Of a stretch of 64,000 bases of DNA, positions 33,999-34,142 are shown piece after piece. The position numbers and the translations under genes were made by a program. The notes below the pieces were generated by a model, which was not told the origin of the DNA, searched no databases, and saw only the letters and a program-made list of their open reading frames with translations. The stretch comes from a virus, in the IMG/VR virus record IMGVR_UViG_3300032282_004772, one strand, 5' to 3'. The number at the start of each line of letters is the position of its first letter. Position 1 is the stretch's first letter.

Positions 33999-34082
33999 AA
34001 AAAAAAAGACCCAATAAAATCATTGGGTCTTTTGGTACAGGATATATATAGACACCCCCGATAAATTGGGGCGGACGTGTTA
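33999..34082 (-). ncRNA. Candidate trans-acting antisense sRNA (~84 nt)
   Basis: TATTTATA at 34090-34083, a CCCC/GGGG hairpin, an intrinsic terminator at 34033-33999, and complementarity to 20699-20740. Confidence 0.6.
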
Positions 34083-34142
34083 TATAAATATTATTTTTTT
34101 TAAAAAAGTATATTGTTTGTATAAAAAAACATAAATTTTTTA

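Follow-up and report, generated by a model that had tools for sequence, protein, structure and literature searches.

Genomic context

The stretch of DNA analysed here, which we refer to as the window, comprises 64,000 nucleotides of the IMG/VR virus record IMGVR_UViG_3300032282_004772 and belongs to a parent scaffold of 176,795 bp. It is AT-rich (G+C approximately 29%), and its gene content includes seven to eight tRNA genes, a tmRNA gene, an endolysin gene and two HNH genes. Its nearest named relatives are Flavobacterium and Cellulophaga phages, together with uncultured huge phages. Given these affinities, the presence of a Por_Secre_tail domain in relatives, and the occurrence of the motif TAnnTTTG directly 5' of the ATG in many genes, we infer that the sequence derives from a large phage of a Bacteroidota host.

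A 20-mer, GGTCTTTTGGTACAGGATAT, has exact copies only at 20699-20718 and 34026-34045, as an earlier note on this DNA had reported. Both copies lie on the plus strand of the window, where they form direct repeats 13.3 kb apart. No further copies with up to three mismatches were found in the window, and none of 100 shuffles yielded a match. Nor is the 20-mer a generic repeat recurring throughout the genome, an outcome which the earlier note had named as fatal to its own interpretation.

Each copy falls within a compact predicted transcription unit, which we term unit A (20646-20826, plus strand) and unit B (34090-33995, minus strand). Both units are headed by a box of the type TATTTAT[AT] (at 20646-20653 on the plus strand for A, and at 34090-34083 on the minus strand for B). 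This box occurs 66 times in the window, and among the ORFs of at least 100 amino acids (n = 80) it is present in sense orientation no more than 45 nt upstream of 27, compared to 12 in antisense orientation, a bias which makes it a plausible phage promoter box at both units.

A conserved structured RNA downstream of the endolysin gene

Unit B is composed of a promoter-like box, a 5' hairpin, a single-stranded stretch and a strong predicted terminator. The box, TATTTATA (34083-34090, minus strand), forms the invariant 5' end of all aligned B units. In the predicted fold of the minus-strand RNA (34082-33995; -25.9 kcal/mol, z = -3.25), a CGCCCC...GGGGUG hairpin that we call P1 (34053-34073) is followed by the stretch containing the seed AUAUCCUGUACCAAAAGACC (34026-34045), which is single-stranded save for its last bases and antisense to positions 20699-20718, and then by an intrinsic terminator (33995-34033) with a 13-bp stem, a 4-nt loop and a run of nine U residues. 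The terminator emerges both from the fold and from a terminator scan, which returned a match on the minus strand only (34033-34004), and the list of ORFs contains none within 33995-34090. The earlier description of this locus, as an ORF-free minus-strand unit with a CCCC/GGGG hairpin and a terminator, is upheld by these results.

The genomic position of B is conserved. Upstream lies an endolysin gene (34419-35237, minus strand; Pfam PG_binding_1 and Glyco_hydro_19), which serves as a syntenic marker of the B family, and downstream lies a gene for a protein of 194 amino acids (33382-33966, minus strand) that possesses its own TAnnTTTG box at 33978-33971. Members of the B family are found downstream of homologues of the former (in at least 31 distinct sequences) and upstream of homologues of the latter, and the genes directly downstream of B are always co-oriented with it.

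A covariance model built from 20 B units gave 41 matches, 31 of them distinct, among the related loci searched, and exactly one match in the window (33998-34090, minus strand, 76.6 bits). In the alignment 92.4% of cells are paired and changes on both sides are seen in 9 of 12 pairs, values reached by none of 500 shuffles and by no slid register. The terminator stem covaries within the family, and pairs of P1 likewise change on both sides. Furthermore, at pair 20-42 of P1, 13 sequences have A:U and 9 have G:U, an alternation that would appear as a C-A mismatch on the opposite strand. The hairpin thus fits a minus-strand RNA only, and the strand that bears the promoter box is therefore the RNA strand of B. 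We conclude that B represents a conserved structured RNA family, covarying on its predicted transcribed strand. Two hallmarks of a base-pairing sRNA are consequently found at this locus, namely a predicted promoter box and intrinsic terminator without a coding frame, and a conserved structure with compensatory changes on the strand predicted to be transcribed.

Database searches recovered no known counterpart. In Rfam neither A nor B had a match at the gathering threshold or at E up to 10, and C4 was not among the weak matches, while blastn searches of GenBank phages with both units returned no match. B is absent from the cultured relatives Flavobacterium phage immuto and Cellulophaga phage phi14:2, as well as from the GenBank huge phages LR745206 and LR756500, which have the endolysin in common with the window phage but not the synteny. 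We also considered and rejected a CRISPR-like mini-array, given that there is one B copy per genome and no repeat array.

A conserved mini-gene upstream of the HNH gene

Unit A comprises a promoter-like box (TATTTATA, 20646-20653, plus strand) that is kept upstream of every member of the A family, an ORF of 34 codons (20675-20779, beginning MKTTDNMIGLLVQD) with homologues of 27-34 codons in most relatives, and an intrinsic terminator (20794-20826). The terminator scan found a match on the plus strand only (20794-20821), in agreement with the earlier claim that the two units are transcribed from opposite strands (minus only at B, plus only at A, by prediction). The first copy of the 20-mer (20699-20718) lies within codons 9-15 of the predicted A transcript, contains the family-invariant GUCUUUUGG, and is the putative target site of the B seed. 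Downstream of A is an HNH endonuclease gene (20858-21352, plus strand; Pfam HNH_5, 1.4e-16), the closest homologue of which has 92% identity and which provides the syntenic marker of the A family.

Approximately 50 IMG/VR loci exhibit the same arrangement of box, 27-34-codon ORF and terminator upstream of homologues of this HNH gene. The characterisation of A in the earlier note as a leader ORF needs correcting: the unit stands by itself as a conserved mini-gene, with a promoter box and terminator of its own, and we find no sign of a leader role for the HNH gene. Nor does A fit a leader-peptide transcription attenuator, for which conserved regulatory codons and alternative hairpins would be expected: RNAalifold detects no consensus structure among 24 units, and only an LL pair is conserved, encoded by the nucleotide-fixed CTT TTG.

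Alignment of these 24 distinct A units reveals that the 9-mer GTCTTTTGG is invariant and that a second motif, (A)TGAGAA(C), is nearly so. The leucine codons CTT TTG within GTCTTTTGG are fixed in all 24 sequences, synonymous positions included, and so the constraint acts on the nucleotides as well as on the protein. In most units 16, 13 or 4 nt separate the two motifs, distances that keep the reading frame. Two clades have 12 or 15 nt instead and a broken ORF, which in one case is half deleted, yet both motifs survive. The units concerned (L067, L069, L091, L070, L071 and L078) have a mini-ORF that is frame-shifted, start-less or half deleted, with the B-complementary motifs intact.

RNAalifold recovered no consensus RNA structure for A from the 24 units, and the peptide, MKTTDNMIGLLVQDILLASLRVHKLTLRSLDKQN, matches no protein family. 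It is 34 amino acids long and charged, with no clear membrane span and a single short hydrophobic run that is broken by Q and D.

The motif GTCTTTTGG also occurs in contexts other than unit A. In six loci (L133, L134, L136, L138, L154 and L156) it lies within phosphoesterase genes of relatives, where it encodes GDWSFGG, and these copies account for part of the excess of GTCTTTTGG over the reversed control in the genomes concerned. A third conserved context, which is non-coding, is found at L169 (G008:188940, plus strand) and L259 (G012:17956, plus strand), where GTCTTTTGGTCAGGATGGAAATAATTATTATTC is followed by an AT-rich hairpin. The first 17 nt of GTCTTTTGGTCAGGATGGAAATAATTATTATTC resemble the 20-mer of the window. 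The B RNA may have a second partner at this site.

Complementarity between A and B across related phages

Of 39 contigs with an A unit, 21 contain precisely one match to the covariance model of B. All three complete genomes (G007, G008 and G050) are among them, and the other contigs are fragments. In these 21 contigs the single-stranded stretch of B runs antisense to the two best-conserved motifs of A. In what we term the main family, B reads ...GUGUUCUCAUAUAUCC(C)UUUCCAAAAGACCCG..., and each of the 14 distinct main-family pairs has B complementary to both conserved A motifs, which it meets in colinear antiparallel order; owing to relatedness among the genomes, these pairs do not count as independent events. 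The resulting duplex is bipartite, with a first block of 11-13 bp on GUCUUUUGG(R)AA and a second of 7-12 bp on AUGAGAAC. Within the core blocks all positions that depart from Watson-Crick pairing are G:U wobbles, with the exception of one U:U in G022/G051, and no A:C mismatches are present inside these GUC-anchored duplexes. Examples include position 10, where G or A in A lies opposite U in B, the variant CUCAAAAGAC in the G007 clade, and the edges of block 2 in G008 and G046, which are G:U and U:G.

Cognate duplexes are also more stable than expected, in that their energies are lower than those obtained with dinucleotide shuffles of A (z of -2.5 to -5.7 in the main family, and of -7.5 to -9.1 in the clade to which the window belongs). 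However, a duplex scan of the whole of the complete genome G008 (317 kb) placed A only about seventh by energy, and so energy alone does not single out A in the main family.

The relative arrangement of the two units differs between clades. Main-family phages encode both units on a single DNA strand, with the motif inverted (approximately 33 kb apart in G007 and G008), whereas in the window clade A and B occupy opposite strands, with the motif direct, 13-16 kb apart. Since complementarity of the predicted RNAs is kept in both arrangements, it is RNA complementarity rather than a DNA repeat that has been conserved.

Covariation in the window clade

Closer relatives of the window phage were reached by way of HNH homologues of 73-75% identity and by pattern scans. 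In this clade block 2 (TGAGAA) is missing from A and B alike, and block 1 has become one continuous duplex of 20-21 bp. In the window, B is the exact antisense of the A site GGUCUUUUGGUACAGGAUAU over 20 bp, with G:C at target position 10. The relative represented by ENA scaffold_406 (G058 in IMG/VR) has the A site CAGGUCUUUUGAUACAGGAUA, of which B is again the exact antisense, over 21 bp and with A:U at position 10. A G:U intermediate is provided by L328 (A), with G at position 10, and L333 (B), with U, a pair that comes from two different samples and is linked only by an identical neighbouring phosphoesterase protein. In G057 the A site is as in G058 and B carries one A-to-G change, giving a U:G wobble. 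Finally, L186 and L314-L318 have a C-to-U change in B that would wobble with G; their contigs end early and the A partner was not recovered. Among the non-self targets of the B seed in the window, A comes first by a wide margin, at -42.1 kcal/mol compared to -29.7 kcal/mol for the next site.

The complementarity between A and B is thus conserved and covarying, and a base-pairing sRNA would be expected to exhibit precisely this, a target complementarity that is maintained and covaries across genomes. The earlier note had read B as a phage trans-regulatory sRNA and had set conserved, covarying complementarity in homologous genomes as a test beforehand; its reading gains support from this outcome. 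The same is not true of the extent of the duplex, which was put at roughly 36 interrupted base pairs by adding segments of 10 and 7 nt to the 20-mer. These segments do exist, with TATAGACACC at 34047-34056, TATTGGCATC at 20721-20730 and ACGTGTT at both 34075-34081 and 20734-20740 (the box quoted with them, TATTTATA, is likewise at 34090-34083 on the minus strand), but they are not kept in the closest relatives, where only the block of 20-21 bp is conserved. Counterparts of TATAGACACC/TATTGGCATC and of ACGTGTT do not pair in scaffold_406/G058, G057 or L328/L333, and ACGUGUU would moreover fall at or before the predicted 5' end of the B RNA. Both segments are best treated as chance matches or as relics of the lost block 2.

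Two explanations that dispense with RNA pairing may be weighed against these data. Under the first, GTCTTTTGG...ATGAGAAC is common to the two loci because the same protein binds at both, or because B descends from A as an inverted copy that has since decayed. On the A-sense strand B does show the element order found in the 5' half of A, and common ancestry of the loci is therefore likely. Nevertheless, the spacing of the two motifs is 10-16 nt in A and 8-11 nt in B and varies between genomes, and differences between A and the complement of B are wobble-compatible only in the predicted strand combination, with a series from G:C through G:U to A:U being present. Moreover, B has its own promoter box, a strand-specific terminator and a covarying hairpin, and block 2 has been lost from A and B together. 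We consequently regard shared DNA- or protein-binding sites, or paralogy alone, as improbable.

The second explanation takes the 20-mer for a relic of recombination, an attachment-site or target duplication around an insert of 13.3 kb, a recent gene conversion tract, or a coincidence. In its favour is the direct orientation of the window copies, 13.3 kb apart. However, no integrase or transposase lies between the two copies, gene order over the interval is common to relatives, and the main family has the motif inverted and at a distance of 33 kb. Coincidence is at odds with the shuffles, and gene conversion would not be expected to leave a G:U intermediate. In our judgement this group of explanations is very improbable indeed.

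Proposed direction and mechanism of the interaction

We propose, as the probable explanation of these observations, that B is a trans-encoded antisense sRNA of approximately 75-85 nt, that A is its partner, and that pairing between them lowers the product of A. B would be read from the phage-type TATTTATA promoter and would end at its strong intrinsic terminator, while A would be transcribed separately from its own TATTTATA box, 13.3 kb away. The single-stranded stretch between the 5' hairpin and the terminator of B would then base-pair with the A transcript, producing in the window phage an unbroken, mismatch-free duplex of 20 bp along codons 9-15 of the mini-ORF. The target is situated 20-40 nt inside the ORF and away from the start codon, such that simple occlusion of initiation is not an obvious mechanism. 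Alternatively, ribosomes might be blocked early in the ORF, or the long duplex might be cut by a double-strand-specific RNase.

As to the origin of the pair, B, when viewed in the sense orientation of A, presents the same succession of elements as the 5' half of A (hairpin, GTCTTTTGG, ATGAGAAC, hairpin), and this colinearity suggests that B probably derives from its own target, part of A having been duplicated in inverted orientation.

It is also conceivable that regulation runs in the opposite direction, with the A transcript acting as a regulator (a sponge or antiterminator) and B as the regulated element, although we consider this unlikely overall. A would in this case pair with CCAAAAGACC, including the first bases of the B terminator stem, with the outcome that B is titrated from other targets, or that its terminator is weakened and transcription reads through into the gene for the 194-amino-acid protein and the phosphoesterase gene. 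Consistent with such a role, the paired stretch enters the 5' arm of the terminator (GACC in the window, CAGGUC/GACCUG in G058), co-oriented genes invariably follow B, the pairing motifs of A outlive the destruction of its ORF (such that the RNA of A may be of greater importance than its peptide), and the non-coding GTCTTTTGG context shared by G008 and G012 hints at other partners of B. Yet only 3-6 of the 8-13 stem pairs would be invaded, the gene downstream of B has its own TAnnTTTG box past the terminator, and in most A units the ORF is intact and frame-preserving. The earlier note had suggested that eight of the paired bases belong to the terminator arm of the sRNA and that regulation could therefore be reciprocal. 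In fact 4 of the 20 (GACC) lie in the base of the terminator, and eight is reached only when the A-tract is included; reciprocal regulation stands as the rival reading just described.

A more speculative idea, to which we assign a low probability, is that A and B constitute a co-evolving 'lock and key' pair of RNAs that determines clade-specific compatibility between related large Bacteroidota phages. If so, the situation would be analogous to the heteroimmunity of P1 and P7, but in apparently virulent giant phages. From its place beside the lysis genes, B would shut down the A mini-gene, or else the A RNA would release genes controlled by B, in either case solely among phages of one specificity group. 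On this view, the transition in the window clade from a bipartite 9+9 duplex to a single duplex of 20 bp would signal a change of specificity.

Comparison with known systems

The closest analogy may be with the c4 antisense RNA of P1 and P7, the specificity of which co-evolves between related phages and is the basis of heteroimmunity (PMC12197685). Like c4, which targets the ant mRNA and represses a phage gene, B is a phage small RNA (in this case a predicted one) that would pair sequence-specifically at a site distant from its own coding position. However, pairing by c4 takes place around the ribosome-binding site, and c4 is a processing product of the same operon transcript, whereas B has its own promoter box and terminator, is encoded 13-33 kb from its target, and is predicted to pair inside the mini-ORF; B also lacks a match to the Rfam C4 model.

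The combination of a short ORF with a small antisense RNA is likewise reminiscent of the type I toxin-antitoxin pairs tisB/IstR-1, shoB/OhsC and zor/orz, in which an ORF of approximately 30 codons is matched by an antisense RNA with roughly 20 nt of complementarity. In those systems the two genes are adjacent and the toxins are hydrophobic membrane proteins. A and B differ in that the genes are unlinked (13.3 kb apart in the window and approximately 33 kb in G007 and G008); the predicted A peptide is charged, with no clear membrane span and one short interrupted hydrophobic run.

In its predicted architecture of 5' hairpin, seed and Rho-independent terminator, B resembles the trans-encoded sRNAs of bacterial chromosomes, but its complementarity to A is much longer, at 20-21 contiguous bp, as in cis-antisense pairs. 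The Bacteroidota, the inferred host phylum, are not known to rely on Hfq for trans-encoded sRNAs. Known cases of a phage small RNA acting on genes of that same phage are few. A literature search found no sRNA described for Bacteroidota phages, those of Flavobacterium included. A and B would thus appear to be previously undescribed families, of an sRNA and a mini-gene, that belong to the already known category of phage antisense RNAs.

Several implications follow if this assignment is correct. Sequence alone suffices to define an sRNA together with its partner in dozens of uncultured phages with genomes as large as 321 kb, and the natural compensatory series of G:C, G:U and A:U offers ready-made reporter constructs. 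Complementarity to B would also explain why the 9-mer GTCTTTTGG is invariant even at synonymous positions of a tiny ORF. Finally, both families are uncatalogued, having been missed by current annotation pipelines.

Other features of the window

Several further observations concern the surroundings of these units. A segment of 75 nt located immediately upstream of the A promoter box (within 20561-20637) is skipped by contigs of three related runs (X2-X4). The HNH gene downstream of A (20858-21352) and a second, different HNH endonuclease gene (21465-21944), both on the plus strand, are free-standing and in tandem between unit A and a tRNA-Leu gene, placing the pair inside the tRNA gene cluster. 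The tmRNA gene is full length (13332-13720, minus strand; Rfam RF00023, 73.3 bits), and ahead of it come a TATTTATA box and a TATCTTTG box (13753-13738). Near the end of the window (63892-63996, plus strand), a tRNA model matches over 105 nt with 33.2 bits, which exceeds the normal size of a tRNA and received no ARAGORN call; an intron or a long variable arm might account for the extra length. At 23823-24224, in the ORF 23037-24371 (minus strand), tandem repeats of 15 nt and 18 nt extend in long runs and encode Gly/Asn/Gln-rich repeats of a 444-amino-acid protein without a family match.
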